From IMG/VR virus record IMGVR_UViG_3300020219_000001: a DNA stretch of 64,000 bases, one strand, 5' to 3'. The notes under the pieces were generated by a model. The model was not told the origin of the DNA and did not search any database. It worked only from the letters and a program-made list of their open reading frames with translations. Shown one piece after another: positions 23,702 to 53,155 of this stretch (the first letter of the stretch is position 1; every line of letters begins with the position of its first letter). Source of the DNA: an uncultured virus (IMG/VR IMGVR_UViG_3300020219_000001) (taxonomy: Duplodnaviria > Heunggongvirae > Uroviricota > Caudoviricetes). The translations under genes were made by a program, and so were the position numbers.

Positions 23702-24361
23702 ATGATGAACCGTCTGATTCTGTTACTAGTGTTGGGGGTGATGAATGTTCTCCCTGTGGCTGTCGCTCAAGAGGTGGCTCAGAAGCCTGCTAACGAGCAA
23801 GGGACCTACCGACTGGCAAGCGAAGATCAACGAACTGGTGGCAATCGTCAACCGGTGGCTGGACCTTCAAAGCGGGCCAAGCGGTACGTCAGCAAACCCG
23901 AGTTCTACACCATCATCCCCGCCGACCACAGAGCGTCGGCGAAGGATCAGGTGGCTGATTCGTCGAAGACGCAGGATGTAGACGACTGCCCCTGCGGTCC
24001 TGACTGCAAATGTCCCAGTGAGGAGATTTGCAAGAGCGGCGACTGTCAGAAGAACTACATCGTCATGTACTCCGCGAAGTGGTGCTCACAGTGCCCGCGG
24101 ATGAAGCGGACGCTGGCCAAGCTCGAAGAGCAGGGCTACATCGTCTACTACGTGGACACAGACGAAAACCCCGAGAGCGCCGAGACCTACAACGTCACGA
24201 AGCTCCCCACGACCATCATCATGGATAAGGGTGAAGAGGTCACACGGTTCGAGGGCGCGGTGCCCGCGGCCAGCGTCACGGAAGGTGTCAAGAAACGAGA
24301 CGAACAAGACGACGAGCCGGCTCCGGTTGATACCGACACCGACTACGACTTCACTGATTGA
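23702..24361 (+). CDS. Exported thioredoxin-domain protein
   Basis: Sec signal (AVA-Q); Cys-rich linker; AKWCSQC, LPT cis-Pro. Confidence 0.85.
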   Translation: MMNRLILLLVLGVMNVLPVAVAQEVAQKPANEQGTYRLASEDQRTGGNRQPVAGPSKRAKRYVSKPEFYTIIPADHRASAKDQVADSSKTQDVDDCPCGPDCKCPSEEICKSGDCQKNYIVMYSAKWCSQCPRMKRTLAKLEEQGYIVYYVDTDENPESAETYNVTKLPTTIIMDKGEEVTRFEGAVPAASVTEGVKKRDEQDDEPAPVDTDTDYDFTD

Positions 24362-25479: not shown

Positions 25480-27150
25480 ATGAACCCGCTAGCAAAGGAG
25501 ATGCAACGGTCTATCGCCGAAGGCTTGATGGGTCGAACGCTCGCAGGTAGTTGCTCCCGCTGGGCGACCAAGCGGCGCGTGATGGGTGGTGACTTTCCCG
25601 GACCTTACTCCTGGAAGTACCACCCGTGGTGCAAAGAGCTTCACGACACGCAAGCGCCTGAAAACTACGCGATGAAGGGTGCCCAGCTTGGCGTCACGGA
25701 AGTGGCGATCAACCGGGCCTTCTACACGATCGACCAGTTGAAGAGGGATGTGCTCTACGTCCTCCCGACCGCTCAAACAGCGTCGGACTTCTCGAAGGGT
25801 CGATTCACCGTTGCGTTGAAGCACAGCGAATACTTGGCCAGTATCTTCACGGACACCAACACGGTGAACATGAAGCAGGCCGGTACCTGCAACTTGTACA
25901 TCCGCGGCTCACGAGGTGAAAGTAACCTCGTGTCGTTGCCGATCTCCGAGTTGATCCTGGACGAATTGGACAGGATGGCTCAGAAGGAGATCGCGGAAGC
26001 GAAGGAGCGCGTCACCGGTCAGAAGAAGCATCACATCTGGGGGTTATCGACGCCAACGATTCCGAACTACGGAATCCACAAGCTCTATAACCAAGGTACG
26101 CAGGAGCACTACACGTTTAAGTGCCCGCACTGCTCGCGTCACACCGAGCTTATCTACCCGGAATGCTTAGAGATCGTCGGCGACTCGGTACATGACATCA
26201 GGTGCAAAGAGTCCTTCCTAAAGTGTAAGGAATGCAAGCATCGCCTGGAGCACGAGCTAAAGCCTGACTGGCTAGCTGACGGTTCTTGGCACAGCATGGC
26301 CCCGAACGCAAACCCGGACAAACGAACCTTTCATATCAGCCAGATGTACTCCTTCACGGTGACACCTGGCGACCTCGCGGTTGCTTACTTCGCCGGCCTC
26401 GGCGACGAAGCGATGGCGAAAGAGTTCCACAACTCAAAGCTCGGCCTCCCGTTCATCGGTGAAGGTGCCCAAGTCACTGACGACCTGATCGAACAGGCCA
26501 TCGGTCGCTACACGATGAATGACGAACGTCCACGAATTGGTGGCGAGCGACTCATCACGATGGGTATCGACCAAGGACAGATCGTCTCGCACTGGGTTGT
26601 CTGTGAGTGGTTCGTTGACCAGATGTCCTCGGACATCAACATCGCCGCGAAGTGCAAGGTTCTTGCACACGGCAAATTCATGGGTGAGGACTGGCACGTT
26701 GCCGAGGACCTCATGGCTGAATGGCAGGTCTTAGCGTGTGTTGTTGACGCTGATCCTCAGATCGCTGAGGCACGTCGCTTCGCTAAGAAGTTCCCACGCT
26801 ACGTCACACTGTGCCGCTACCGCAGAGGCAAAGTCGCTCGCGAGATTTCCATCGCGGACGACGAGTCCGGCGTGGAGATGGCGACAGTAGACCGAACCAA
26901 CTGGCTAACCACATCGCTCGGACGGTTCCGCAACAAGCGGATCATGCTTCCCGCGGACGTGTCGGTTGAGTATCGGGAAATGATGAAGGCCCTAGTTCGC
27001 ACCTACGTCAAAGACGAGGACGGGAACTACATGGCCACGTTTGTTGAAACCGCACCTGACCACTACGCACACGCCTTCAACTATGCCGAGATCGCCCTGC
27101 CGTTGGCAGCTTCGATCACGACAGGGAAGGACGTTAGTAAGTTCTTGTAA
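25480..27150 (+). CDS. terL: Terminase large subunit (lambda GpA-like)
   Basis: MKGAQLGVTE Walker A, LILDELD Walker B, STPT, CPHC, MGIDQG nuclease, PDHYAHA. Confidence 0.93.
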   Translation: MNPLAKEMQRSIAEGLMGRTLAGSCSRWATKRRVMGGDFPGPYSWKYHPWCKELHDTQAPENYAMKGAQLGVTEVAINRAFYTIDQLKRDVLYVLPTAQTASDFSKGRFTVALKHSEYLASIFTDTNTVNMKQAGTCNLYIRGSRGESNLVSLPISELILDELDRMAQKEIAEAKERVTGQKKHHIWGLSTPTIPNYGIHKLYNQGTQEHYTFKCPHCSRHTELIYPECLEIVGDSVHDIRCKESFLKCKECKHRLEHELKPDWLADGSWHSMAPNANPDKRTFHISQMYSFTVTPGDLAVAYFAGLGDEAMAKEFHNSKLGLPFIGEGAQVTDDLIEQAIGRYTMNDERPRIGGERLITMGIDQGQIVSHWVVCEWFVDQMSSDINIAAKCKVLAHGKFMGEDWHVAEDLMAEWQVLACVVDADPQIAEARRFAKKFPRYVTLCRYRRGKVAREISIADDESGVEMATVDRTNWLTTSLGRFRNKRIMLPADVSVEYREMMKALVRTYVKDEDGNYMATFVETAPDHYAHAFNYAEIALPLAASITTGKDVSKFL

Positions 27151-27167: not shown

Positions 27168-28961
27168 ATGGCTGACGGATTGCCCAAGCTTGTTGATAGT
27201 CGGCACCCCTACTTCTTCGAGAATTGCGGCGACTGGCATAAGTGGCGCACGTGCTACTCAGGTGGGGACCGCTTCAAGGACAACTACCTAGTCCAGTTCA
27301 GTAATCGCGAAGACGCGGATGACTTCCGCGACCGCAAGTTCTTCACTCCGACCACGGTCTTCGCGAAGTCCGCGGTCAACAAGATTCGCAACTCCATCTT
27401 CCAACGGTTGGGTGACGTAACACGACAGGGTGGTAGCTCTGATTACCATCGAGCTATCGCGGGTGAGAAGCAAGGCGTGGACCGACGTGGTGCCACGATG
27501 AACTTCTTCCTGGGTAATAAGGTCTTGACGGAATTGTTGGTGATGGGTCGTGTCGGCGTCTACGTCGATATGCCCGAAATCCAACAGACCTCGACGATCG
27601 CCAGTGCTAAGGACTTAGCTCCTTACCTGTACAGCTACCCTGTCGAGAACATCCTCAACTACACCTGCACGAAGCCTGAAGCTCCTAGCGAGTTCCAATC
27701 CATCCTGCTGAAGGACTCAATCCTGAGGCACGATGCGATCAGCTTCATGCCGGTTGCCTACAACGACCGCTATCGGTACGTCTGGATCAGCCAGGACACC
27801 GGACTCGTGAACATCCAGTTCTACGACTCCAACGGTGAACCTGTTGATCGCGACGGTAACCCCGGCGGTCCAATCGAGTTGGGCCTGACTCGCATCCCGT
27901 TCGTCCTGATGGACATCGGTGACAGCCTGTTGAAGGACATCTGCGATCACCAGATCGCTCTGCTCAACCTCGAATCCAGCAACGTCAACTACGCCTTGAA
28001 GGCCAACTTCCCGTTCTACACCGAGCAGCGTGACATGCGTGCTGTCGGTGGACACTTGAAGAAAGTCAACACGGACGGCACTGCCACCACGGGTGGACAG
28101 GGCAACACGGACGAGAAGGTCAGCGTTGGTGTGACCCAAGGTCGTTACTACGACAAGGACACCGAACGCCCCAGCTTCATTGCACCTCCAGCCGAGCCTC
28201 TTGAGGCCACGATGAAGTTGCAGGACAAGCTGGAGAGCGACATCAACAAGATCGTCAACCTCGCAGTCACAAGCATGGGCGGCCGAGTGTCGGCTGAGTC
28301 CAAGAAGATGGACAACCAGGGCTTAGAAGCCGGGTTGTCGTTCATCGGGCTGGTCCTCGAAGGTGGTGAGCGACTCATCGCTGACTACTGGAGCAGCTAC
28401 GAAGAGAAGGTCGAGTCGAAACGCAAGACCGCCACGATCAAGTACCCGGATCGCTACAGCCTCAAGACCGACCTCGATCGAATCGAGGAGGCCGAGAAGT
28501 TGTCCGAACTGATGTACAAGGTTCCCAGCCCTCTCGCCAAGCGTGAGATCGCGAAGAACATCGTGAACGCTCTGTTCGGCGGCAAGGTCAGTGTCACCCA
28601 ACTGGAAGCAATCCAGAAGGAGATCGACACGACGCCTTACACGACCAGCGACCCGAAGACGATCATCGACGCGAAAGACGCCGGCCTTGTCGGCGAGAAG
28701 ACAGCTTCGATGGCCCTCGGCTTCAATGAGGACGAGTACCTCACGGCACGGAAGGATCACATCCGCCGCGCCACAGAGATCGCCAAGGTTCAAGGCATCG
28801 CCAAAGGCGGTGACGATCCGGGTGCCCGCGGAGTGTCTGACTTGTCGTCCAACCCGAAAGCCGGGAAGGACGAGAAGGAAGCAAGCCGTAACACGGACTT
28901 GAACACAACCACCAAGAAGCCGGTTCGAGGCGCAGGCCAAGAAACCGCTGAAGAGGAATAG
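27168..28961 (+). CDS. Portal protein
   Basis: Follows TerL; 597 aa; GRVGVYVDMP, IPFV, SAESKKMD. Confidence 0.85.
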   Translation: MADGLPKLVDSRHPYFFENCGDWHKWRTCYSGGDRFKDNYLVQFSNREDADDFRDRKFFTPTTVFAKSAVNKIRNSIFQRLGDVTRQGGSSDYHRAIAGEKQGVDRRGATMNFFLGNKVLTELLVMGRVGVYVDMPEIQQTSTIASAKDLAPYLYSYPVENILNYTCTKPEAPSEFQSILLKDSILRHDAISFMPVAYNDRYRYVWISQDTGLVNIQFYDSNGEPVDRDGNPGGPIELGLTRIPFVLMDIGDSLLKDICDHQIALLNLESSNVNYALKANFPFYTEQRDMRAVGGHLKKVNTDGTATTGGQGNTDEKVSVGVTQGRYYDKDTERPSFIAPPAEPLEATMKLQDKLESDINKIVNLAVTSMGGRVSAESKKMDNQGLEAGLSFIGLVLEGGERLIADYWSSYEEKVESKRKTATIKYPDRYSLKTDLDRIEEAEKLSELMYKVPSPLAKREIAKNIVNALFGGKVSVTQLEAIQKEIDTTPYTTSDPKTIIDAKDAGLVGEKTASMALGFNEDEYLTARKDHIRRATEIAKVQGIAKGGDDPGARGVSDLSSNPKAGKDEKEASRNTDLNTTTKKPVRGAGQETAEEE

Positions 28962-28964
28962 TCG

Positions 28965-29261
28965 ATGGACATTGAACAGATCACAGTACCGGAGTTTTTC
29001 TTCGGGCACGGAACTGTCGGCACGACTCGTGAGCAGATCACGACCGCCGCGCACGTCGCTAGGAAGTACGTGAAAGTCAAAGCCGATCTGGGCAATGGCG
29101 ACAACGTCTTCGTCGGCGGCGTCGGTGTCGCCAACACGGGCGACACGCAGGGCTACACGCTCGACGCCGGTGAAGAAGTTGAAATCCCGGTGGACCGTGC
29201 CAACAAGGTATGGGTCATCGGAGGTGACGCCGATCAAGGTTACTCCTGGCTCGTTATCTAA
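28965..29261 (+). CDS. Small beta-rich virion protein, paralogue 1
   Basis: EFFFGHGTVG...IPVDRANKVWVI...DQ..SW. Confidence 0.75.
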   Translation: MDIEQITVPEFFFGHGTVGTTREQITTAAHVARKYVKVKADLGNGDNVFVGGVGVANTGDTQGYTLDAGEEVEIPVDRANKVWVIGGDADQGYSWLVI

Positions 29262-29271
29262 GGAGTAACTG

Positions 29272-29592
29272 ATGGATGTCACGAAAGAGTCCGTTGAGGA
29301 ATTCTACAACGGGCACGCGACGGTCGGACTGACCAGAGTAAAACTGACTGGCACTCTAAGCTTCCCGCTAAACAAGGGAATCTTACTTCGCTGTCCTGGT
29401 GGGACTGACCCCAACCCTAACTCCGATCCCATCTGGGTCGGTGGGGCTGGTGTAACTGCTGACAGCGCCGCCGGCTCTGGTGGTATGCCAATGATCCCGG
29501 GTGATGTGCTTTTCATCCCCATCGACCGGTCAGACAAGCTGTGGGTTATTTCCACGGACACTGACCAAGACATTGCTTGGATGGGAATCTAA
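29272..29592 (+). CDS. Small beta-rich virion protein, paralogue 2
   Basis: [10 protein letters not shown]...[12 protein letters not shown]...DQ..AW. Confidence 0.75.
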
Positions 29593-29594
29593 CT

Positions 29595-32102
29595 ATGGGC
29601 GGTATCTTCTTCGCACGCAGCGGCGGCCCGACAGGTCCGCAAGGCCCTCCCGGGGACGTTGGTCCTCCGGGTAGCGGCGTAATCAACTGGCTAGGCTTGT
29701 GGGATGAAGAGACCGAGTATGTTGCAAACGATGCCGTCAACTTAGACGGATCAAGTTTCATCTGCATACTAACCCATACCAACCAGCAGCCGCCGAACGC
29801 GACCTACTGGGATGTGCTCTCAAGCAAGGGCGATACCGGCAGCACCGGTAGCACGGGAGCCACAGGTCCCGCTGGCCCGGCGGGTCCGCAAGGGAACCAA
29901 GGCCCGGCAGGTCCGCAAGGTACGCAAGGAGCCACGGGTTCGACAGGATCGCAAGGTCCGGTCGGCAACACGGGGTCCACGGGTCCCACTGGTCCGACGG
30001 GTCCCATTGGTCTCGTCTGGCGCAACGCTTGGAACAGCGGCACGGCCTACGTGGCGAATGACGGTGTCGTCTCTGACGGCTCCTCATACATCTGCATCCT
30101 GGGCCACACCAATCATCAACCGCCGAACGCAACCTACTGGACTCTGTTGGCGGCCGAGGGCGAACAAGGCCCAACCGGCTCACAAGGTCCACAAGGCGAG
30201 CAAGGCGATGCCGGCCCCGAAGGTCCTGAAGGACCTGAAGGCCCTACCGGCGGTACGGGCAGCACGGGACCCACGGGTCCCGCTGGCTTGAACTGGTTAG
30301 GGACCTGGAACAGCGGCACGGCTTACGTCGTTGACGACGCCGTGGTCCGCAGCGGTACGTCCTACGTCTGCATTCTCAATCACACCAATCATCAACCGCC
30401 GAACGCAACCTACTGGGATGTGCTCGCGGCGAAGGGTGACACGGGCGACCAAGGTCCTCCGGGCACCGGTATCGTTTGGGAAGGTGCTTGGGATAACGGA
30501 ACCGCATACACCGAGAACGACGCCGTCTTCCACGAAGGCTCGTCTTACGTCTGCGTCTCCGATCACACCAATCAAGAGCCGCCGAATATCACTTACTGGG
30601 AACTCTTCGCACAGAAGGGTGACACCGGTGAACAAGGTATCCAAGGTGAACAAGGTGAGCAGGGAGAACAAGGCGAGCAAGGTGAGCAGGGTGACACCGG
30701 CGCGACAGGCTCCACTGGTTCGACCGGTGCCACAGGCCCGGGTTACTTCACAACGAGCACGACCAGCTTAGCCATCGGCACGGGGACGAAAGTCTTCACT
30801 GTACAGACGGGGCTAGCTTGGAGCATCGGTGCTCGCGCAAGGGCAACCTCCGCGGGATCGCCGAGCAACTGGATGGAAGGCGTCGTGTCGAGCTACTCCG
30901 GTAGCACGCTCACGATCGAGATGGATCGAACCCTTGGGGCCGGCACATTCGCTGACTGGAACATCCATGTCGCTGGCCAACCTGGTGACACCGGCTCCAC
31001 TGGTGCCACGGGCGACGAAGGCCCGCAAGGCGACCCTGGTGATCCTGGTGATCCTGGCGACGACGGAGACGATGGTCTCGACGCCATGTCGGAGCCGAAC
31101 TGCCGCTTGTCGCTCGCGACTGGTGATCCACTCGGCAGCGGCACAGCACAGAGCACATTGTATTTGGTCCCCTTCAAGGGTAACCGAATTTCGTTGTACG
31201 ACGGTGCAAACTGGGTAACACATTTCCTCACGAGTCAGTTGTCTCTGGCGGTACCTTCGACAATCTTCCAGTTGTTCGACATCTTTGTCTACGACAACGG
31301 TGGCACACTAACGCTTGAGACACAGAACTGGAGTCTAACGTCCGGGGCAATCAGTGCGGCGACGAACGCTTCACCGATTGTCATCACAGCGATCACGACC
31401 GGTCTCAGCAATGGTGACTTGGTCGGCATCGCGGGTGTGACTGGTAACACTGCGGCGAACGGAATCTGGCAGGTCACTGGTCTGTCAGGCGGCAACTTCA
31501 GTCTGCTCGGCTCGACCGGTAACGGTGCCTACGCCGGTAACGGTGTTTGGTACAAGTTGAACGGTAACACTAACTCGGGTCTCACAACCCAAGATGGTGT
31601 GATCGTGAAAACCGGCTCAACAGGTAAGCGATACTTAGGCGTCGGCATGACGATCGGGACTTCCGGTCAATGCACGTCAAGCCTCGCACGCTCGTGGCTG
31701 GCGAATTTGTACAACCCGATCCGTCACGTGATGACGTATTTCGATACGACAAGTCACACCTACGCTTCGAGTACGACTCGGCCTTGGGCAAACTTAGGTG
31801 CTGCCCATCTGACGCATCTCGTACCGAGAGGAATGATGGTCGTCCAGAACGGTATTATCGCACCCCTCTTCACAGGAGATGGTAGCTCCATCCCCACAGT
31901 GGGTATGGGCAACGGCAATATCAACGCGATGAACATGTACGTGGCGGCAACCGCCTCCAGCGGTTCACAGCGTTTTGCCGCGACGGGTGTGACGGAAGTC
32001 AGCAACGAAGGTTTCAACTACTACGGCATCTGCGAAGAACGGCAAGGCTCCGGCACTGCCAACTTCACACAGGTTGTCGCACAGTTAGATGTGGTGAGGT
32101 AA
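29595..32102 (+). CDS. Collagen-like fibre with four CBM5/12-like modules
   Basis: G-X-Y runs alternating with W.G.W...T.Y..ND.V...GSSY.C...HTN..PPN.TYW. Confidence 0.88.
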
Positions 32103-32453: not shown

Positions 32454-32900
32454 ATGACTCACTTCCTGGATGGCGACGACTGGGACACGATAGTCAAAGA
32501 CCTCGTGCAGCCGATACGGCGGCTTGAGGTTGACCGTGCTGAAGCGATTGACGCTTTCTATGGCACGGCCGTACAGACGATCGGCAGGGGGCAGCCGGTC
32601 CGATTGCTCAGCGGAGGATTAGCACTCGCGTCATCTGACCTCGGTCAGGTATGCGGGATCGCTTTGAACGACGCGCCCCTCGGCAGCCGTTGTGACTACG
32701 TGACGAGAGGCTCAGTCCTCTTGGAAGGTTGGCACAACGCAGTGGGCACTCCCAGACTAACGTCTGGAGCCTACTACTTTCTCAACGGCGTCGGGAGCTT
32801 TTCCTACACGCCGCCGCAAACAGGTTACTTGATCTCGCTGGGGTACGCCCACAGTCCACTGATACTGGACTTGAACATCGGGATCAAGATCAAGCTTTAA
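32454..32900 (+). CDS. Capsid cement/decoration-like protein, paralogue 1
   Basis: LTSGAYYFL..G...TPP..G....LG.A; ends IGIKIKL. Confidence 0.65.
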   Translation: MTHFLDGDDWDTIVKDLVQPIRRLEVDRAEAIDAFYGTAVQTIGRGQPVRLLSGGLALASSDLGQVCGIALNDAPLGSRCDYVTRGSVLLEGWHNAVGTPRLTSGAYYFLNGVGSFSYTPPQTGYLISLGYAHSPLILDLNIGIKIKL

Positions 32901-32911
32901 GGAAACTTCGC

Positions 32912-33391
32912 ATGGCAGCACGCCGACCTTTGGTTGTCAACTTGACGACTGGTGAACTGGAACAACTCTCCGCGAGCGACTACCTCGACGAGCGGGACAT
33001 CATCCAAGCCCAGAATGAAACCGGTGGCGCACTCGCCATCTGTACGCCGGTCTATCAAACCGCGACCGCCGGGGAAGTGGCGAAGGCTGACGCCGACGAC
33101 ATCGCGACTGCGAAGGTCTCGGGCCTGGTGCTCGACGCTTCGATCGCTGACGGTGCCGCCGGCTCGGTCCTGACGGACGGTCGCTTGACGGCGACGACGG
33201 GTCAGTGGGACGCAGTCACCGGACAAGTCGGTGGCCTGACGCCTGGCTCACGCTACTTCCTGAGTGCCGGCACTGCTGGGATGCTTTCGACGACGCCCCC
33301 GTCCGCGGATGGCCACGTGATCGCTCCCATCGGTGAAGCCCGCAGCGCGACTGAGTTTGAGATTTCGATCGGGACCCGCATTAAGTTGTAG
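32912..33391 (+). CDS. Capsid cement/decoration-like protein, paralogue 2
   Basis: LTPGSRYFL...G...TPP..G....IG.A; ends IGTRIKL. Confidence 0.7.
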   Translation: MAARRPLVVNLTTGELEQLSASDYLDERDIIQAQNETGGALAICTPVYQTATAGEVAKADADDIATAKVSGLVLDASIADGAAGSVLTDGRLTATTGQWDAVTGQVGGLTPGSRYFLSAGTAGMLSTTPPSADGHVIAPIGEARSATEFEISIGTRIKL

Positions 33392-34436: not shown

Positions 34437-34535
34437 ACACACGGCAGCATCAATAACCGACTTGTTGTCGGGTGGACTCACAAAACCCTTAACGTGAGTT
34501 CGTAATGTTTCATAGGGGTTTGAAGGACTGTTACG

Positions 34536-35303
34536 ATGTTTGTTGATTTGTACGTTTCCGCTGCTGTCTTGACTTGCTACGACGAAGTGCTCCCGGGCGA
34601 GACGCCGCCGGGTGAGACGCCGCCGGCCGAGACCAAGACGTTCACCCAGGACGAGGTGAACAAAATCCTCGCTGAGGACAAGCGGAAGCACCAGGCGAAT
34701 GCCGTGAAGCTGGAGAAGCAGCTTCAGGAGACGCTCACGTCGGCCAAGCTGACGACCGAGGAACGATCGAAGCTCGAAGAATCTTTGGAGGACTTGCGTA
34801 AGCAGTCCCGCACCAAGGAGGAGCAGGCCAAGATCGAGAAGAAGAACCTCGAAGACCAGTTCCAACGCCAGATCGCCGAGTTGTCAGCGCGTGCTGATTC
34901 GGCCGAGAAGCGTTACGTGGATTCGACGATCTCCCGTTCGCTGTTGGACGCCGCCGTGAATGGCGATTCGTACAACCCGCAGACTGTCGTAACCGTTCTT
35001 CGCCCTATGGTGAAGATGGTTGACAACAGCCCGATGATTGACTTCCCCGATGTCTCGTCCGAGACCGGTGACCCGATCATCAAGCAAATGACCCCACTTG
35101 AAGCCATCGAACGGATGAAGCAGTTGCCCGATCAATACGGCAACCTGTTCCGATCCGGAGTTGTTGGCGGCCTCGGGGGCACTTCGGTTACCGGTGGCCA
35201 TGCACCGGGTTCCAACGGTCGCGTGGATGTGAAGAAGCTGACGCACGAACAGTACGTCGAACTTCGCAAGAAGAATCCGAACGCGATCTTCGGCGCACGA
35301 TAA
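34536..35303 (+). CDS. Capsid scaffolding protein
   Basis: KTFTQDEVNKI, coiled coil, NLF...G-rich, Y..LRK; directly upstream of the capsid gene. Confidence 0.8.
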   Translation: MFVDLYVSAAVLTCYDEVLPGETPPGETPPAETKTFTQDEVNKILAEDKRKHQANAVKLEKQLQETLTSAKLTTEERSKLEESLEDLRKQSRTKEEQAKIEKKNLEDQFQRQIAELSARADSAEKRYVDSTISRSLLDAAVNGDSYNPQTVVTVLRPMVKMVDNSPMIDFPDVSSETGDPIIKQMTPLEAIERMKQLPDQYGNLFRSGVVGGLGGTSVTGGHAPGSNGRVDVKKLTHEQYVELRKKNPNAIFGAR

Positions 35304-35499
35304 TTTGAAGTTGCGGGATTGTAGGCGATCCTACCCGCAACAGGAACACAGCACGGTCGTTCTCTAACGACCGTGCTTGATCGTCCGCTACCGGAGCAGT
35401 ATCCGGGTCCAAAACCCACGGCAGGGTTACGCCGGGTCCGTTTGAACTTTCTGCGATCGCACTACGCGCTCGTAACCAATCTAAGAAGAAGGATTTGCA

Positions 35500-36915
35500 A
35501 TGTACGACATGTACATCTCCCCGGCGAGCCTCGTGTGCTTCGCCAACGACAACGACGCCCTGATCCCGGAGATTTGGGCCAACGAAGCTTTGATGCTTCT
35601 GAATCAGACCTCGGTCATGGCCGGCTTGGTCCACCGTGACTTCTCGAACGCTGTCGCCAACTTCGGTGACGTGGTCAACACCCGCCGGCCCCGCGCCATG
35701 CGACTGACCCGTAAGACCGACGCTGACGATGTGGTGACCCAGGACGCGATCGTGGACAACGTCCGCGTTCCGCTGGATCAGCACGGTGTCATCTCGTTCG
35801 TCATCCGTGACGGCGAAGCCACCAAGTCGATGCAGGAACTCGTGGACATCCACGTCGTCCCGGCGATCCAGGCCCTCGGCCGTGGTGTCGATCGTGGCCT
35901 CGCGGGCATGATCCACAAGTATTTCTCGACCAGCGACAAGCGCGCCGGCCGGCTCTCCAATCTCACGTCGAGCAACTCGAAGGATTTCCTCTTCGAGGCT
36001 CGCGAGATTATGAACCGCAACCTGTGCCCGCTCGACGGTCGTAACCTCGTGCTCGGCCCGACCAGCGAAACCCCGATCGTGAAGACCGACCTGTTCTTGG
36101 CTGCGGACACCCGCGGCGACGGCGGCAGCACGTTGGAGAACGCTCGCCTCGGCCGTGTGGTCGGTTTCAACACCTTCCTGAGCCAGAACGTCCCGTCGCT
36201 CACGACCGCTGCGGCGGACATCGCGACCGGTACGATCACGAACGCCTTGGCGGCGGGTGGTTCAGGTTCGCAAGCTTGCACCATCACCGGCTACGAAGTG
36301 AGCGTCGGTGAGTTCATCACCGTCGCTGGCAACGACCAGCCGACTCGGGCCACGGCGGTCACCGCCTCGACCCACACCACGGCGCTGACGTTGGATGAAG
36401 CCAACAAGTACGCCACGCTTAGCTCGGCGGCCGTGACGGCTTACAAGTCCTGCGACGTGAACGGTGCCTACGACGCTGGTTACACCAAGGAAATCGTGTT
36501 GGACGGCTGGACCGCCAACAAGGCTCCTCAGGTCGGCCAGTTGCTCGCGTTCGGTACGACCACGCGACACACCTACACGATCATCGAAAGCCGCCTGTCG
36601 GCCTCCGGTGAGCAGTCGGTGATGCTGGACCGTCCGCTGGAATACTCGCTCTCGAACAACGACCTGGCCTTCCCCGGCCCGGCCGGCACCTTCAACTTCG
36701 CGTTCCACAAGAATGCGTTGGCTCTCGTCTCCCGTCCGGTCGCGGCTCCCCGCGCCAACTCGGGTGTGATGAGCGCGGTGGCTTCGAGCGAGAACCTCGG
36801 TATGCGAGTCACGATGCAGTACGACACGGTCAAGATGGGCACGCGAGTGAACATGGACTTGCTGTACGGCTACGCCGTTCTCGACACCAACCTCGCTGTG
36901 GCGTTCTTGGGCTAA
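35500..36915 (+). CDS. Major capsid protein (P22 gp5-like) with an inserted beta domain
   Basis: IPEIWA.EAL, LVHRDF, GDVVN, NFAFHKNALALVSRP, DLLYG. Confidence 0.9.
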   Translation: MYDMYISPASLVCFANDNDALIPEIWANEALMLLNQTSVMAGLVHRDFSNAVANFGDVVNTRRPRAMRLTRKTDADDVVTQDAIVDNVRVPLDQHGVISFVIRDGEATKSMQELVDIHVVPAIQALGRGVDRGLAGMIHKYFSTSDKRAGRLSNLTSSNSKDFLFEAREIMNRNLCPLDGRNLVLGPTSETPIVKTDLFLAADTRGDGGSTLENARLGRVVGFNTFLSQNVPSLTTAAADIATGTITNALAAGGSGSQACTITGYEVSVGEFITVAGNDQPTRATAVTASTHTTALTLDEANKYATLSSAAVTAYKSCDVNGAYDAGYTKEIVLDGWTANKAPQVGQLLAFGTTTRHTYTIIESRLSASGEQSVMLDRPLEYSLSNNDLAFPGPAGTFNFAFHKNALALVSRPVAAPRANSGVMSAVASSENLGMRVTMQYDTVKMGTRVNMDLLYGYAVLDTNLAVAFLG

Positions 36916-38255: not shown

Positions 38256-38978
38256 ATGGCTCGTATTGAATTGCGAGACGCCACCATCCTGATTCAGGAC
38301 GGTCTGGCGGGCACCGCGGCTGTCGAGGACATGTCCATCATGGCTGGCGACAGCGGACTGTCGGTTGACACCGTAGTGCTTAACACCACCGACACTGACG
38401 TAATCCCCGTCGGTGCTCGGTTCACGATCGCGGGTGAGACCGGCTTGCCGATCCACACCGTGCTCACTTCGACGGGTAACCCGACGACGGCTATCACGTT
38501 CTCCCCGGTCTTGGCCGCGGGCGTGATGGACGAAGCAGTAATCACGTTCTTGCCACAGCAGATCGAAATCAAGATCGGCGAAGGCAACTTAACGTACACC
38601 GAGAACAAGGAGTATGAATATCTCCTCGATCGCGGTGACCTAGACACGGTACGCGAAGGTAACGAAGTCCCGATGGACGTTTCGTTAGAGTTCGTTTACG
38701 AGTTCATCCGGACCGGCACCGGCGAAGCCATCACGCCCGTAGACGCCCTCAAGGGTATCGGCGGCGCGGCTAGCTGGGTCAGTGCTTCGGATGACCTCTG
38801 CGAACCGTACTGCGTCGATGTTCTGATTCAGCACGATCCCCCGTGCGGGACGGCTCAGGATGAGGTTACGACCTTCCCTGAGTTCCGTCACGACTCGCTG
38901 GAGTTCGACCTCTCTGCCGCCACGATTGCCGTGCAAGGCCGCTGCAATGCGACCGAGCCGACGATCGCGCGGTCGTAA
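38256..38978 (+). CDS. Major tail tube protein, copy 1
   Basis: IKIGEGNLTYTENKEYEYLLDRGDLDTVREG; position. Confidence 0.75.
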   Translation: MARIELRDATILIQDGLAGTAAVEDMSIMAGDSGLSVDTVVLNTTDTDVIPVGARFTIAGETGLPIHTVLTSTGNPTTAITFSPVLAAGVMDEAVITFLPQQIEIKIGEGNLTYTENKEYEYLLDRGDLDTVREGNEVPMDVSLEFVYEFIRTGTGEAITPVDALKGIGGAASWVSASDDLCEPYCVDVLIQHDPPCGTAQDEVTTFPEFRHDSLEFDLSAATIAVQGRCNATEPTIARS

Positions 38979-38988
38979 GGGGTGACGC

Positions 38989-40014
38989 ATGGCACGTCTT
39001 GAATTGCGTGATGCCACCATCTACATCCGCGACGGCTTCGGCGGCACTGCCGCTGTTGACGACGCTTTGATTGCCGGTGGCAACACGACCTTGGAGATCG
39101 ACACGCTTGCCGGTTTCCCGAATGCTCGGACCACGGTACCCATCGGTGCCCGCTTCACCATCGCTGGTGTGGCGGTCCCGGAGGAGTTCACCGTCACGGC
39201 CCAGAACGCGAACGAGAAGCAGCAGGTTGTGGTTGACGCTTCGAGCGGCAACTTCACCCTGACGTTCGACGGCGAGGAAACTGCCAGCATCGCGTATGAC
39301 GCGAATGCTGCGGCGGTCCTGGCTGCCTTGGAGGGCTTGAGCAACATCGCTCCCGGCGATGTCGTTGTCACGTCCCCCGTTGCGAGCACGTGGATCATCG
39401 AGTTCCGTGGTGTGTACCTCGGACTGGGTGTCTCAGTGTTGGTCGGCACGGATGTGGACTTGATGGGCGGTGGAGATTCCATCACCATCTCCACGCCTCG
39501 TCCGGGCGGCACCACGTGGGAGTTGACGTTCACGCCGGCATTGGATGGTTCCGACCTTCCGGCCGACACCAACGTCATCACGTTCCTGCCGGTCCAGGTG
39601 GAGATCAAGATCGGTGAGGGCAACCTCACCTACACCGAGAACAAGGAGTATGAGTACCTCTTGGATCGCGGCGATCTCGACACGGTCCGTGAAGGCAACG
39701 AAGTCCCGATGGATGTCTCGTGCGAGTTCGTCTACGAATTCGTCCGGACTGGGACAAGCGAAGCGATCACTCCGGTGGACGCATTGAAGGGTATCGGGGG
39801 CGCGTCGGACTGGACCAGTTCGTCTGAAGACCCCTGCGAACCTTACTGCGTCGATCTCGTGATCGAACATGATCCTCCGTGCGGAACCGCGGAGAATGAG
39901 ATCACCACGTTCCCGACCTTCCGGCATGATTCGCTGGAGTTCGATCTGTCTGCCGCAACGATCGCTGTGCAAGGCCGCTGTAACGCGACCGAGCCGACCA
40001 TCGTCCGCGAATAA
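38989..40014 (+). CDS. Major tail tube protein, copy 2, with an extra inserted domain
   Basis: Near-identical C-terminal 140 aa; insert NEKQQV..GNFTLTFDGEETASIAYDA. Confidence 0.75.
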   Translation: MARLELRDATIYIRDGFGGTAAVDDALIAGGNTTLEIDTLAGFPNARTTVPIGARFTIAGVAVPEEFTVTAQNANEKQQVVVDASSGNFTLTFDGEETASIAYDANAAAVLAALEGLSNIAPGDVVVTSPVASTWIIEFRGVYLGLGVSVLVGTDVDLMGGGDSITISTPRPGGTTWELTFTPALDGSDLPADTNVITFLPVQVEIKIGEGNLTYTENKEYEYLLDRGDLDTVREGNEVPMDVSCEFVYEFVRTGTSEAITPVDALKGIGGASDWTSSSEDPCEPYCVDLVIEHDPPCGTAENEITTFPTFRHDSLEFDLSAATIAVQGRCNATEPTIVRE

Positions 40015-41344: not shown

Positions 41345-44300
41345 ATGGCTGACGAAATTAAGCAGACATTTACGATTGATGCTTCCCAAGCCTTAGACGC
41401 TTTGCGGCAGCTAGATCAAGGGTACACCAGCTTATCTGGCAAGCTCGACGCGACCGCCAAGGCGATCTCTTCTTTCAACCGTCGAGCGGGCAACTCCGGT
41501 AAGGCTTTCGACAAAGCCATCAAGAGTGCCGACGCTTACAACCAGACGCTCCAGACGCTCGCCACCGGTGGGCTGACGAACGTCGCGAATCAATCTCAGC
41601 AGCTTAGCGGCGCACTGAAGCAGTTCGGCCGCTCCTCGCAGCAGAGCATGAACGCCGCCGCGAAGTCTACGCAGAACTTCGTCATCTCTTGGGAAACGCT
41701 CAGCCGTGTCGTGATGACTCAGTTCATCGTGCGAGCGATGAGCCAGTTCCGTGACGCTGTTAGTGCGGCGACCGAAGAGGCCATCGACTTCCAGCGGCAA
41801 GTCGCGCTCATCACCACGATCGCGTCGGACACCGGCTTCGATCAAATCGCTACCTCGGTCCGCAACATCTCCGACAGCTTCAACTTGCCCCTGCTCGACA
41901 CCGCGAAGGGTGTCTACCAGGCGTTGAGCAACCAGGTCGGAAACTTCGCGGACAGTCTCCGCTTCACAGAGGAGGCCGCTAAGTTCGCCCGCTCGACGAA
42001 TTCGTCGCTGGCGGACTCGGTAGACCTTCTCTCCGGTGCCCTTCGCTCCTACGGATTGAACGTGGAGGACACCGGACGAGTTGCAGGTATCTTCTTCACC
42101 GCGATCGACAAGGGCCGTGTTACGGCCGACCAGTTGGCGAATGCCTTTGGTCGTGTCGGCCCTGGTGCGGAAGCCATCGGTATCAGCTTAGAGGAACTCG
42201 CGGCTGCGGCGGCGACGATCTCCGATAAGGGTATCGCAACTGCTGAAACCTTGACGCAATTCCGCGGCATCATCACGGCTTTAACCAAGCCGACCGATGC
42301 CATGAAGGAACGCCTGCGTGAGTTGGGCTTCTCCAGCACGGAAGCCGCCATCGCCACGTTGCGATTGGATGGTGTGTTGGACGCCTTGGCTGGCACGACG
42401 GATGGCTCTCAAGCTGCGTTCGCGAAGTTGTTCCCCAACATTCGTGGTATCGGCGGTGCGACCGCCTTGACTGGCGACAACCTGAAGACGTTCGCGGATA
42501 ACATCCGTGAGGCGCAAGCCAACGGTGAGGAGTTCGCGAACTCGAAGTTCTTGCTCGCGACGGCCACGGATGGTGAAGTCCTCACGAAGGCAATCAACCA
42601 GATCAAGAATGCCTTTACGATCGAGTTGGGGCAAGCACTGGTGAAGACCGGTGCCGACCTGCTCGGCACGAAGGGCAGCGTCGAAGCGATCACGCAAGTC
42701 ATCAAGATCATGGCACAGACGATCCCCGCCCTTACGGGTGCGGCGATCGCACTGGCTGGAGCGTTGGGGACCGTCAAGATCGCGACGTTGGCTCTGGCCA
42801 GTCCGGTCAACCTGGTGGTCACTGCCTTGGCAGCCCTCGCTGTCGCCATCCCGGCGTCACTGAATGCCATCAAGGATGCACGGACGAAGAACGCCCTGAA
42901 GGGCATCACTGGACTTGAAGAGGCGAACGCCGCCGAGTTCGAGAGCTTTACCAGCACTCAGAACAACATTCTGAACCTCCAGAAGAAGATCGACCAGGAG
43001 TTGGTCGCCGGTGCCTTCACGAAGATCACGGAGATCAACAAGGCTTACCTGAAGGATGTGGACAACGCCAAGAACGCCAACGACGCAGTTGTGGCGAACA
43101 CTGAGGCGTCCCTCGACAAGATTCTAAGCGCCCGGACTAAGTTCGTGTCCGCGATCGAATCAGCCATCACGGAAAGCCAGCAGCAAGTTAAAGACTCGGT
43201 CGCTCGAATCGCAGACCTGCGAATCAAACAGGACGACCGACAGTTCGATACGAAGACCAAGGACTTCGACGATGCTCAGAAGGTGTTCGCGCTCAACCAG
43301 CGTGCCGCCCAGATCGCGTCGAAGGCCACGGCTGATCTGAAGGCTGCCTTTGCCTCAGGTGACGACGATGCACGCAACCGCGCGTTGGGCCAGTTCCAAC
43401 GTGCCGACGCTGCCGCGGCCGAAGCCCAGAGCATTGGCGAGCGTGCCGGCAACCGTGTGTTGGAAGCACAGTCGGCCAAGCAGTTGGAGTCCATCACGAA
43501 TCAACAGATTCGTGCTGAGGAGGAGATCAATCGACTCCAGGCCCAACGGCAGAAGGCATTAGCGTCGGAACGCGATCGCCAGGAAGGCATCGTCAAGCAG
43601 CTTCGTGAACAGACCAAGCTCGTCCTCGACAACACCGGCCAGTTCGATAAGAACGGTCAGTTGCTTGACCCGGATGAACTTGCGAAACGCTCGCAGGCAC
43701 GTGCCGAAGGTTTGAAGAAGATCGCCGAACTCGCGTTCAGCGGTAAGGACTTCAAGGCCGCGGACGCACTGGGGTTGGCGGACTTCGTGTCCACCATTGA
43801 GAACGATCTCTCGCAGCGGCCGATCAAGCTGGTGTTCGATGTCGAGTCTTCCATCCAGAAAGTCCAGGCCGAGATTCAGAAGTCCCTCGGCAACCTCGAT
43901 GTCCAGCTACCGTTTCTGAAGGATGCAGAAAAGCTCTCTGGTCGGAGTCTACGCGATTCTCCTGACGATATTCGGAAGGGTATCCAGGACTTGCAGACCG
44001 AGGGCAGCAACCTAAGGCAGCAGCGATTCCAACGTGCAAGCGCGGAGTTGAAGATCGAGCAGAAGCGAGCGGAGGTTCTCAAGGGAATCGCCGATCTTGA
44101 AGCACGACTTCCTCAGCGAGAAGCGTTGGGTCCGGAGTCGCAGCCCGCGAGGGACGCCACTCAAAGTGCCATCGAGCAGTTGAAGTCGGATGCAGCAGCG
44201 GGCGACATCAGTGTCGCCAACCTGAACCTGACGCTCAACAAGCTCAAGGAGATTGATTTCGGTAGCCAGTTCGGTGTCTTGAAAACGGACGCCGACCTGA

Positions 44301-44908
44301 TTCAGAAGTCATTCCAGAGCACGGCGGAACTGGCTCAGAACTTGAACCAGTTATCGGCTACTCCTCAGATTGACGAAGCTCGGCTGGCCGCGATTGAAAA
44401 CGTGCTGAACAAGGTCGGAGAAACCGACTTCACAGCCGTCTCGAATCTCGGAACCGGACTTTCCAACGCTGTGGAGCCGTCAAGCTTTGTCGCTACGAAT
44501 GCCACTACGACGGCGACCGCATACGAGCGGGCAGCCGCGGCCATCCAAAGCGTGCAAGGTGCGACCCTACCTGTGATCCCGTCGTCTACTCTGCCCGAAG
44601 GGAATCAGTTCGGTCGGGTCCGTTACTTCGCTGACGGCGGTATGGCCAGAGGTGTTGATACGATCCCCGCCATGCTTCGTGCTGGCGAGACCGTCATCAA
44701 CCCGAAGTCCTCGTCCCGGTTCTTCTCTCAGTTGCAAGCCATCAACGCCGGACAAAACCCTGTCTTCCGACAGGACGGCGGGACGGTAAACAACACCAAC
44801 GTCGGTGACATCCATATTCATGGTGCCACCAATCCCAAGGCTTCCGGCAAGGCAGTGGTTGACCAAATCAACCGACTGAAGCGCCGGGGTGCCGCACAGA
44901 TTCGATAA
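41345..44908 (+). CDS. Tape measure protein
   Basis: 1187 aa, Ala-rich helical, TP901-type core, C-terminal FADGG..DTIPAML..GE.V. Confidence 0.92.
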   Translation: MADEIKQTFTIDASQALDALRQLDQGYTSLSGKLDATAKAISSFNRRAGNSGKAFDKAIKSADAYNQTLQTLATGGLTNVANQSQQLSGALKQFGRSSQQSMNAAAKSTQNFVISWETLSRVVMTQFIVRAMSQFRDAVSAATEEAIDFQRQVALITTIASDTGFDQIATSVRNISDSFNLPLLDTAKGVYQALSNQVGNFADSLRFTEEAAKFARSTNSSLADSVDLLSGALRSYGLNVEDTGRVAGIFFTAIDKGRVTADQLANAFGRVGPGAEAIGISLEELAAAAATISDKGIATAETLTQFRGIITALTKPTDAMKERLRELGFSSTEAAIATLRLDGVLDALAGTTDGSQAAFAKLFPNIRGIGGATALTGDNLKTFADNIREAQANGEEFANSKFLLATATDGEVLTKAINQIKNAFTIELGQALVKTGADLLGTKGSVEAITQVIKIMAQTIPALTGAAIALAGALGTVKIATLALASPVNLVVTALAALAVAIPASLNAIKDARTKNALKGITGLEEANAAEFESFTSTQNNILNLQKKIDQELVAGAFTKITEINKAYLKDVDNAKNANDAVVANTEASLDKILSARTKFVSAIESAITESQQQVKDSVARIADLRIKQDDRQFDTKTKDFDDAQKVFALNQRAAQIASKATADLKAAFASGDDDARNRALGQFQRADAAAAEAQSIGERAGNRVLEAQSAKQLESITNQQIRAEEEINRLQAQRQKALASERDRQEGIVKQLREQTKLVLDNTGQFDKNGQLLDPDELAKRSQARAEGLKKIAELAFSGKDFKAADALGLADFVSTIENDLSQRPIKLVFDVESSIQKVQAEIQKSLGNLDVQLPFLKDAEKLSGRSLRDSPDDIRKGIQDLQTEGSNLRQQRFQRASAELKIEQKRAEVLKGIADLEARLPQREALGPESQPARDATQSAIEQLKSDAAAGDISVANLNLTLNKLKEIDFGSQFGVLKTDADLIQKSFQSTAELAQNLNQLSATPQIDEARLAAIENVLNKVGETDFTAVSNLGTGLSNAVEPSSFVATNATTTATAYERAAAAIQSVQGATLPVIPSSTLPEGNQFGRVRYFADGGMARGVDTIPAMLRAGETVINPKSSSRFFSQLQAINAGQNPVFRQDGGTVNNTNVGDIHIHGATNPKASGKAVVDQINRLKRRGAAQIR

Positions 44909-51637: not shown

Positions 51638-52203
51638 TGAGACTTTCGAGGGAGAGCGTTGACCGCTTCTTCGATCATAACATCCACATCGAAAGTCGCA
51701 CGATCTTCATCGGCGATGGTGGGGACGACGAGATCGACGGAGTGATTGCTAATGGAGTCATCAAGGCGTTTCATCTCCTTGGTGAGTCCACTGACAAGCC
51801 GATCAAAGTGTTCATCAACAGCTTTGGCGGCTGCTGGTTTGGAGGGATGGCCATCTACGATGCCATCAAGCATTGCCCGTGCGAAGTGAATGCCTACGTG
51901 ATAGGCTCCGCGATGAGTATGGGCAGCGTGATCCTCCAGGCGGCGGACACAAGAGTGATCTACCCAAACGCGACTCTGATGATCCATGATGGATACGAGA
52001 CGCGAGTGGGTGACACTCCGCAGACATTCGCGAACTGGGCTGAGTTCAGCAAGAAGGGTCGCGAGATGATGTACCGAATCTACTCAGGAAGATCGGGTAA
52101 GCCGGTTGCCTTTTGGCGCAAGAAGTGCGGGTCGGACTTCATCCTAACGTCGCAGGAAGCAAAAGAGTTAGGACTGGTCGATTCCATCTATGGAGAGACA
52201 TAG
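51637..52203 (+). CDS. ClpP-family serine protease
   Basis: INSFGG, AIYDAI, AMSMGS (Ser), MIHD (His), EAKELGLVD. Confidence 0.88.
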   Translation: MRLSRESVDRFFDHNIHIESRTIFIGDGGDDEIDGVIANGVIKAFHLLGESTDKPIKVFINSFGGCWFGGMAIYDAIKHCPCEVNAYVIGSAMSMGSVILQAADTRVIYPNATLMIHDGYETRVGDTPQTFANWAEFSKKGREMMYRIYSGRSGKPVAFWRKKCGSDFILTSQEAKELGLVDSIYGET

Positions 52204-52730
52204 CAACCGTTTCGATAGGCCCCGGGCAGCTTAGGCTGCACCGGGGCTTTTTCGTTTGGAAAATTCAGCCAGGCGAACTCGCCCCACCAATCTACGGCAA
52301 CCGCATCATACGCTCGGGCAGCAGTTACCGGATCGTCGAACTGACCAATCGCGTAATTGTACCCACTGACGTAGATTTGTGATAACCATTTTCCATTAGT
52401 CTTGATGAACGACACACCCTTGTATCCAGACGTGTTGTTTTCCGGTAGACCTCTGTTGGCCGCGTTCTGGACTGCGGTGGCTAGCCTCAGGTTTTCTCGC
52501 TGGTTGTTGAGTGTGTTCCGATCCTTGTGGTCAATTCGTCTTCCGTCCGTCTCAACGCCAGCCATCGCCATGATGGCCTTGCTGAGGCGAATGAATTTCA
52601 CTTTCCCGTCGATTCGCACCGACCGATGAGGATAGCCATTGTTGTACGACCACTTGAACTGGTTTAGTTGTTCAAAGAACTCGTCATCAACAAGGGCTTC
52701 CTCATTCTGTGAAAGTGGAAGCTTCTTCAT
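52188..52730 (-). CDS. HNH-AP2 homing endonuclease
   Basis: IDHKDRNTLNNQRENLR, NTSGYKGVS, AARAYD..A...GEFA.LNF. Confidence 0.9.
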   Translation of the reverse strand: MKKLPLSQNEEALVDDEFFEQLNQFKWSYNNGYPHRSVRIDGKVKFIRLSKAIMAMAGVETDGRRIDHKDRNTLNNQRENLRLATAVQNAANRGLPENNTSGYKGVSFIKTNGKWLSQIYVSGYNYAIGQFDDPVTAARAYDAVAVDWWGEFAWLNFPNEKAPVQPKLPGAYRNGCYVSP

Positions 52731-53155
52731 TGCCCATCCTTGAACGGACAACCAAGACACGTCTCGACCAGGACCTTCTTCTGGTAGGTCTCGGCTTGCG
52801 AGCAGTTGCACACGACGTTCACGTCAACGGCCCCGTCGAGGTTCGCCTTGAGACCGTACATTCCCTTCCGGCACGCCGGCCACAAAGGTCGGAACAGGAA
52901 GGGATTCTCAGCGTCTCGCTGGTAGCCGCTGATCTCCGGCGGCTGGGCGTCGGCCTTCTCGTACTCGATGCTGCCGTCCTCGTGGACCTTGGGCGGCTTG
53001 AACAGCCGGCCGGCCACGCGAGGAACAGCATTCATCAAGACCTGCAACGGGTTCTTGAACTGCTTGGCACCATAGACGATCTGGATGCCAGGCGCATCCG
53101 AAGGAGTCACGCTACCAATTCCGGTCAAGGGGCCACTACCATTACAACAGCCCAT
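52727..53155 (-). CDS. Cys-containing hypothetical protein
   Basis: AGGAG RBS; ATGA-coupled. Confidence 0.7.
   Translation of the reverse strand: MGCCNGSGPLTGIGSVTPSDAPGIQIVYGAKQFKNPLQVLMNAVPRVAGRLFKPPKVHEDGSIEYEKADAQPPEISGYQRDAENPFLFRPLWPACRKGMYGLKANLDGAVDVNVVCNCSQAETYQKKVLVETCLGCPFKDGQ

Follow-up and report, generated by a model that had tools for sequence, protein, structure and literature searches.

Capsid assembly of the P22 type is not known to require an N-terminal leader or cleavage. In other phages an N-terminal part of the coat protein is used in assembly and then removed, as is the case for the HK97-type delta domain (S78) and for lambda gpC (S49), and in T4 the capsid targeting sequence (CTS), a short N-terminal tag with a cut site, addresses proteins to the assembling head and is removed by gp21. 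In staphylococcal phage 80alpha, the capsid protein (CP) and the scaffold protein (SP) carry a leader of 13-14 residues which is cut between F and A by the host protease Prp; according to the accessible part of that report, the scaffold leader is required for assembly and its cleavage is dispensable (PMC5744158). The L27-type motif is given as MLxx(D/N)LQ(F/L)F'A(S/H)KK in the accessible part of another report (PMC9405229). In the accessible parts of the literature searched, no such leader was found outside the 80alpha group, and, as far as that search extends, a leader shared by scaffold and coat is in print only from 80alpha-like phages of Firmicutes. Here we describe a short N-terminal leader carried by both the scaffold and the coat protein of an uncultured phage of the Caudoviricetes (IMG/VR record IMGVR_UViG_3300020219_000001), analyzed in a 64-kb piece of this phage-like genome with 57.8% G+C, referred to below as the window.

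The genes of the window are arranged in the order terminase (25480-27150), portal (27168-28961), a collagen-like fibre gene, an adaptor-like gene, scaffold (34536-35303) and coat (35500-36915), followed 3' of the coat by tail genes including the tape measure (41345-44908) and then by a ClpP-like gene (51637-52203). The 255-amino-acid (aa) product of 34536-35303 (+ strand) is a phrog_206 scaffold, as indicated by its profile match (E-value 1.8e-12), its position directly 5' of the coat gene, its helical body and its basic C-terminal helix pair; the AlphaFold2 (AF2) model has long helices at residues 38-142, a small alpha/beta domain and the basic helix pair at residues 237-252. The product of 35500-36915 (+ strand, 471 aa) is the major capsid (coat) protein of the P22/Sf6 type, with an HK97 fold and an insertion domain. 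It matched the P22 coat model PF11651 at 106.5 bits (E-value 1.8e-30; cut-off 24 bits) and phrog_283 with an E-value of 8e-58, and its AF2 model, with a mean predicted local distance difference test score (pLDDT) of 82.4, was matched by Foldseek to Sf6 gp5 (E-value 1.5e-13) and P22 gp5 (E-value 1e-12).

The scaffold begins with MFVDLYVSAAVLTCYDE (open reading frame (ORF) 34536-35303, +) and the coat with MYDMYISPASLVCFAND (ORF 35500-36915, +), and both N-termini fit L-Y-h-S-x-[AP]-x-h-x-C-[FY] with the same spacing in both families. The scaffold leader comprises residues 1-15, M-F-V-D-L-Y-V-S-A-A-V-L-T-C-Y (34536-34580, +), which end in an aromatic residue at an acidic junction and are followed by a low-complexity linker of residues 16-34 (34581-34637, +) that is acidic and rich in Pro, Glu and Thr, as seen in the alignment of relatives and in the AF2 model. 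The coat leader comprises residues 1-14, M-Y-D-M-Y-I-S-P-A-S-L-V-C-F (35500-35541, +), delimited by the profile and the alignment of relatives, and is followed by the near-invariant stretch A-N-D-N-D-A (35542-35559, +). Each gene is preceded by a ribosome-binding site GAAGGA read from the sequence on the + strand, at 34522-34527 (8 nt 5' of the scaffold ATG) and at 35488-35493 (6 nt 5' of the coat ATG), and the coat ATG lies only five codons 3' of an upstream in-frame stop.

Coat relatives were examined as the best 120 of 1386 at E ≤ 1e-10 among 8000 scored candidates, with 53-100% identity; 118 of these could be anchored on an I-P-E-x-W motif, and the other two were N-terminally truncated. 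With P1 denoting the last leader residue, 105 of the 118 coats had Cys at P2 and 108 had Phe or Tyr at P1, and the residues after P1 were A (94) or D (16), N (114), D (114), N (115), D (104) and A (115). Among 120 scaffold relatives, C-[FY]-[DE] occurred within the first 35 residues in 86; the linker differed in length and composition, and a conserved K-T-F-T-Q-D-E-V-N-K followed it. When a 13-column leader profile built from 189 blocks was run over all six frames of the window, the scaffold scored 15.6 and the coat 13.4 bits, and the next match 5.1 bits. In a complete relative of 136.5 kb (G017) the corresponding scores were 13.3 for the coat, 11.0 for the scaffold and 4.4 bits for the next match. 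In the window and in G017, the leader is carried only by scaffold and coat.

Conserved leader residues are encoded by varied synonymous codons (Leu by TTG, CTC, CTG and CTT, Tyr by TAC and TAT, Ser by TCN and AGC, Cys by TGC and TGT, and Ala likewise by several), and an in-frame ATG is found two codons 5' of the leader block in 60 of 65 coats and one to six codons 5' of it in 65 of 65 scaffolds. Because synonymous codons vary while the ATG positions are kept, the leader is translated and conserved as protein, and the true starts do not lie downstream; residue conservation together with the codon data also excludes chance. Both leaders are predicted to be unstructured within otherwise confident folds: in the AF2 models, coat residues 1-16 had a pLDDT below 50 and were not packed on the coat body, and the scaffold leader had a pLDDT of about 52 and no secondary structure, with residues 15-27 in the linker below 50.

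The junction between leader and coat body was examined in a word-index-free search of 1.84 billion representatives, which returned 2323 coats at E ≤ 0.001. Among the best 150 of these 2323, 139 could be anchored, and 121 of the 139 have an N-terminal extension of at least seven residues, most often 12-14. At fixed spacing, P1 was Tyr in 36, Phe in 33 and Trp in one of the anchored coats, and P2' was Asn in 94. About 13 of the 139 are leaderless and start with M-A-N (or M-G-N, M-P-N or M-S-N) exactly at the equivalent of Ala15, so that the A-N-D-N-D-A stretch corresponds to their N-terminus after Met; this count was read by eye, three further short rows being false anchors and one more leaderless row having no anchor. 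The coat of the cultured Streptomyces phage Galactica begins at about query residue 16, and no protease is annotated in the Galactica head module. Since leaderless and cultured relatives start at this point, coat residues 1-14 are an add-on before the natural N-terminus of the family. For two leaderless coats DNA context was available (L203 and L301), and both of their scaffolds start with acidic or low-complexity sequence and have no greasy leader, which indicates that presence and absence of the leader are coupled between scaffold and coat.

An earlier note on this DNA, made from the sequence of the window by itself, had pointed out the motif common to scaffold and coat, which the recurrence in both families and the profile scores given above confirm, and a search of related phages for the motif, which it had called for, found it there. 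Its remark that the coat continues after the leader as P22-type coats usually start was likewise borne out, the PF11651 match beginning at residue 21 and the leaderless relatives starting at Ala15, and its reservation that true starts might lie downstream does not apply.

In order to compare the two leaders of each phage, leaders were extracted from 135 related loci; both scored more than 10 bits in 96 of them, which gave 65 unique pairs. Scaffold and coat leaders of the same phage were more often identical than shuffled partners at P7 to P1, with identities of 0.48 versus 0.30 at P6, 0.32 versus 0.10 at P5, 0.46 versus 0.27 at P4, 0.57 versus 0.24 at P3, 0.94 versus 0.84 at P2, and 0.80 versus 0.52 at P1, where the choice is between Phe and Tyr. 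The observed identities were matched by 0-2 of 2000 shuffles, which ignore relatedness; three controls were therefore added. One used independent pairs on a tree of coat bodies with 74 rows, in which pairs with differing coats were scored for a scaffold change in the same or in the opposite way. Among the traits listed, the same-way and opposite-way figures were 5.6 and 0.2 of 12 pairs for Tyr at P1, 4.1 and 0 of 7 for Cys at P2, 2 and 0 of 3 for an aromatic P1, 2.6 and 0.1 of 9 for Ala at P3, 4.9 and 1.0 of 7 for Leu at P4, 2.9 and 0 of 6 for Gln at P5, and 1.7 and 0.9 of 5 for Pro at P6; the scaffold shifted with the coat and hardly ever opposite to it. In an alignment-free test on 93 unique loci, the coat P6-P1 hexamer had at least 4/6 identities in the N-region of its own scaffold in 44 of 93 cases, and in foreign scaffolds in 383 of 8398. 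Gene conversion is not the cause of the matching: codon identity at identical residues was 0.457 in own pairs and 0.405 in shuffled pairs.

In distant clades the leaders are unrelated to the one described here, yet they are common to both proteins of one phage. Such dialects, matched within the phage, include GKIW.PVF (L223, L237), ..LVY (L218, L222), VHVF (L206), KKF.LLY (L277), RSWYG (L282), LLAY (L297), KPVF (L241), EL[IV]AF (L002) and ..LAS[FY] (L031, L053, L148); Ser-Tyr is found in both proteins of L153, L159 and L169, and P1 is Arg or Lys in both proteins of L122 and L091. This matching within phages, which is qualitative, is the clearest evidence of co-variation. Furthermore, one host chromosome (G002:C1, Thermoguttaceae) contains three prophage coat genes, at 1478038, 2199422 and 2692001 (L004, L303 and L302), with two dialects (..AIACY/..LVVCY and ..CEFVCY/..AEFICY); two of the three coats share about 95% identity in the first 150 residues. 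Reading by the host alone would be insufficient, because P3-P7 stay matched per phage while this one host holds two dialects, and the many dialects matched within phages suggest a reader specific to the phage, not a host protease acting by itself.

The leader is almost certainly a real, functional and co-evolving signal. Our preferred explanation, to which we give a probability of roughly 0.5, is that it serves assembly in a phage-specific manner and is probably cut off behind Phe14 in the coat and behind Tyr15 in the scaffold. Scaffold residues 1-15 and coat residues 1-14 constitute one portable module, short, greasy and unstructured, placed before the ancestral N-terminus of both head-assembly proteins. 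In the assembling procapsid this module would be recognized in a manner particular to each phage, whether by one partner that the phage encodes and that is common to both leaders or through pairing of the two leaders, and we propose that leaders are alike within a phage and drift between phages because they are read in this way. The assembly role is suggested by analogy with 80alpha, whose scaffold leader is required for assembly. Clipping would probably take place at the only universally kept feature, the junction of an aromatic residue with Ala, Asp or Glu, and the coat would then begin with A-N-D-N-D-A, as leaderless relatives do natively. The odds of such a putative cut are judged even or slightly better than even. 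As to the enzyme, the ClpP of the phage itself would be the sole candidate for this phage, and otherwise some host or phage protease may be responsible.

Nine of the 12 genome matches are in metagenome-assembled genomes named Planctomycetota, Pirellulales, Thermoguttaceae or Planctomycetaceae, two of the nine sitting in chromosomes of 4.2 and 6.6 Mb; these matches are therefore prophages of Planctomycetota, and the phage described here is one of Planctomycetes bacteria. Peptidase_Prp (PF04327) was found in none of five Planctomycetota host genomes, with a control that was positive in B. subtilis, T. maritima and L. lactis, and in none of 16 related phage records or the ORFs of the window. The phyla listed with Prp in the accessible part of the literature exclude Planctomycetes (PMC9405229). 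Host L27 starts with M-A-H-K-K-G-Q-G in all five genomes and has no N-terminal extension. A degenerate DNA pattern for the leader, which detects the canonical dialect only, gave 10 matches in the five host genomes; six were prophage scaffold or coat genes, and the other four were internal, C-terminal or within a secretion signal, none being N-terminal, while a reversed-pattern control gave six matches. As no host protein matched the canonical leader pattern at its N-terminus, these hosts have no look-alike of the kind that L27 is in Firmicutes.

The arrangement thus resembles that of 80alpha (PMC5744158, accessible part) in several respects: two head-assembly proteins alone share a short leader (14-15 residues here) with Phe and then Ala at its end, the head module contains no prohead protease, and the leader is a separate module before the working protein. 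Unlike in 80alpha, the leader sequence is unrelated to the L27-type motif as described in the accessible part of PMC9405229, the hosts have no Prp, a short L27 and no protein with the motif, and the coat is of the P22/Sf6 type; furthermore, the leader is not bound to a motif of the host and drifts into dialects that match only inside one phage. Of the four features that define the 80alpha system, three, namely Prp, a long L27 and a host motif, are absent here, and because the hosts have no Prp and a short L27, this is not the 80alpha/Prp system.

The 188-aa product of 51637-52203 (+ strand) matched PF00574 at 113.6 bits (E-value 1.3e-32) and had head maturation proteases as its best PHROG matches (phrog_94, E-value 7.6e-36), and its Ser, His and Asp aligned with those of S. 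aureus ClpP (4emp). From its sequence it is judged to have a ClpP fold with a Ser-His-Asp triad and to be a real ClpP-like protease. No other protease family was found in the window, where its gene follows the tail genes at a distance of 16 kb from the coat gene, outside the head module. The gene overlaps the stop of a 914-aa tail-module gene (ATGA), and 3' of it, in the region 51637-52811, an HNH endonuclease gene with an AP2 domain is located on the opposite strand. ClpP was absent from all 15 related viral records that keep the leader, five of which are at least 90% complete and one of which is a fragment of the same phage that ends before the ClpP gene; it was found in one other lineage only (G022), whose coat is 50% identical and which has a short shared leader (..LCF). 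ClpP is consequently not kept wherever its leader substrates are kept.

Known protease families were found neither by family nor by PHROG searches between terminase and tape measure, S78, S49 and Prp were each absent from 16 of 16 related records, and six-frame searches of G017 for the ClpP, S78, S49 and Prp families gave no other protease. Three further candidates were rejected. A trypsin-like protein of G017 (L199:8877-9797, - strand, 306 aa) has a secretion-type signal and is absent from the window, G001 and G009; its homologues occur in eight of the 15 related records and in four of the five that are at least 90% complete. Two small genes of 98 and 106 aa directly 3' of the portal (28965-29261 and 29272-29592, +), which have no family match, were considered as a hidden Prp-like protease, but they are paralogues and one has no Cys. 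An extra ClpP in host G004 lies 51 kb from the prophage coat, with no other window-like phage gene within 10 kb, so that a phage origin is unsupported.

These results bear on what the earlier note had expected of the mechanism. Its account of 80alpha and Prp agrees with the accessible part of PMC5744158, its description of the present system as analogous but different is upheld by the Prp and L27 surveys, and its statement that no prohead protease lies in the head module stands. Its suggestion that the phage ClpP might be the cutter does not hold as a general explanation, and the search of host proteins, L27 among them, for which it had asked gave no leader.

Several observations weigh against the explanation that we prefer. 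No protease was found to be conserved with the leader, ClpP is missing from the related records that keep it, and the trypsin-like protein of eight records carries a secretion signal and is absent from the window. The co-variation is imperfect, as the coats of L141, L142 and L173-L178 have Cys where their scaffolds have Ser; the nearest-pair control gave a modest result (own 75 versus sister 52, p 0.025; by pairs 10 versus 5, with 15 ties); and among the traits listed none of the single-trait sign tests on independent pairs reached 0.05. No coat-body column tracks a basic P1 (six coats with Arg or Lys versus 166 aromatic), and when an acidic column answering it was sought, the best columns were acidic in five of the six and in about one third of the rest, which is no clean signal. 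In addition, a shared leader need not be cut, because cleavage is dispensable in 80alpha, as stated in the accessible part of PMC5744158. The main rival, which we regard as a real possibility at about half the weight of its negation, is an assembly signal that is never cleaved, for example strands that pair the N-termini of scaffold and coat, with the scaffold exiting intact as in P22. The lack of a conserved protease in the related records agrees with such a signal, direct pairing of like with like would predict the matching seen at the variable positions P3-P7, and 80alpha requires the scaffold leader and not its removal (PMC5744158, accessible part). A sharp and universal junction, aromatic and then Ala, Asp or Glu followed by Asn, at which leaderless relatives start, resembles a processing site and speaks against it, as does a leader that is modelled as unstructured and not packed on the coat body. 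It is also in its favour that proteolysis is normally no part of the maturation of P22-type coats that have a separate scaffold. A more specific and rather doubtful form of pairing would be one in which scaffold and coat leaders join like with like, e.g. as in-register strands, so that only cognate proteins co-assemble. The dialects would then be an assembly-compatibility code, the junction would be the place where the pairing is released, and related phages or prophages in one cell would be kept from poisoning or pirating each other's capsids. Complex prediction for the coat with scaffold residues 1-45 gave a score of 0.00, which speaks neither for nor against pairing.

The remaining alternatives differ in the protease or in the kind of signal. 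Removal of both leaders in this phage by its own ClpP acting as head maturation protease is unlikely, at perhaps one chance in a handful: the enzyme is the sole protease family in the window, its triad is aligned, its PHROG matches are to head maturation proteases, and the second lineage with a short shared leader also has a ClpP, whereas the position of the gene and its absence from the 15 leader-keeping records argue against it. Phage ClpP-like proteins also serve other ends, and the presence of one proves little. An N-terminal degron that feeds unassembled scaffold and coat to Clp proteolysis, by host ClpXP or by phage ClpP aided by an unfoldase of the host, and thereby keeps their amounts in balance, is improbable. 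All five hosts carry clpP pairs, the phage has an extra ClpP, and the leader is exposed and unstructured; nevertheless, a conserved host unfoldase as reader would not allow many phage-matched dialects, a destruction tag on a major structural protein would be costly, and the window showed no gene for an unfoldase. It is very improbable that the leader is a signal for secretion, for lipoprotein formation or for membrane targeting, or an artefact of chance or annotation. Although the greasy stretch ending in x-x-Cys is superficially lipobox-like, a basic n-region is lacking (76 of 118 coats have M-N-x), only about 10 residues are greasy, the position before Cys is most often Val, and many lineages have Ser, Ala or Val in place of Cys. 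The columns of 118 coats and 105 scaffolds, read by eye, do not show the features of Sec or lipoprotein signals (basic n-region, h-region of 7-20 residues, lipobox L-[AS]-[GA]-C); coats, moreover, assemble in the cytoplasm, and an artefact is countered by the conservation and codon data. Least probable of all, to the point of being negligible, is a true counterpart of 80alpha, in which a Prp-type host protease that also matures L27 cuts both leaders. The leader length (14-15 versus 13-14 residues) and the Phe/Ala junction resemble 80alpha as described in the accessible part of PMC5744158, but Prp is absent from hosts and phage records alike, host L27 is unextended, no host protein carries the leader at its N-terminus, and Planctomycetes are not among the phyla listed with Prp.

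The phage-specific assembly leader that we prefer can also be compared with other head-assembly systems. The coat fold and family, the long scaffold helices, the basic C-terminal helix pair and the absence of a protease from the head module are as in P22/Sf6 gp5 with its separate scaffold; unlike in P22/Sf6, both proteins bear an added leader, which is missing from leaderless members of the family. As a short N-terminal tag on proteins of the assembling head, the leader may be likened to the T4 CTS, but the latter is present on several unrelated cargo proteins and the former, in the window and in G017, only on scaffold and coat; T4 also has a phage protease in the head module, none of which was seen here, the Pfam family S77 not having been among those searched. 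The HK97 delta domain differs in that it has about 100 residues and replaces a scaffold, and S78 and S49 proteases did not occur in the related records.

While the 80alpha leader copies a signal of a host ribosomal protein, the same architecture is present here in a large uncultured group that infects a different phylum, for which the search gave 2323 coat representatives at E ≤ 0.001, with N-terminal extensions in most of the best 150. The accessible text of a 2025 review of Planctomycetota mentions phage once. With no Prp, host look-alike or conserved protease, the leader is free to drift while the two proteins of one phage match, which points to a rule of capsid assembly whereby two building blocks bear the same address, independently of any single protease. 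In practical terms, the leader can help annotators of these phages to recognize scaffold genes and true start codons. This study adds evidence on the junction from leaderless coats, the absence of the leader from both proteins together, the distinct dialects of remote clades, the finding of two dialects in a single host, and surveys of protease families.

Other features of the window were noted in the vicinity of the head and tail modules. The fibre gene between portal and scaffold, which is an unusual position, encodes a protein of 841 aa that has collagen repeats, three carbohydrate-binding modules of the CBM_5_12 type and PHROG matches to tail fibres (29577-32102, +). Two overlapping ORFs in different frames (32454-32900 and 32729-33391, +) have like endings, ..IGIKIKL and ..IGTRIKL; translation of the second probably begins at its internal Met, and the pair may represent short fibre-like paralogues. 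Downstream of the coat, the adjacent genes 38256-38978 and 38989-40014 (+), of 240 and 341 aa, are near-identical in their N- and C-terminal thirds, and the larger has an extra middle insert and weak major-tail-protein matches (phrog_10909, phrog_117), so that the pair resembles tandem paralogous tail-tube-like genes. A thioredoxin-domain protein is encoded just 5' of the terminase region (23702-24361, +) and is kept in G017 (L194:11962-12390, -). G017, a phage of Planctomycetota, in addition encodes RtcB, a Ro60/TROVE protein with a vWA domain, an RNA ligase and a peptide deformylase, the loci of this RNA-repair-like gene set being L197:3786-4958, L197:10757-12481, L198:14069-15262 and L197:6065-6466.

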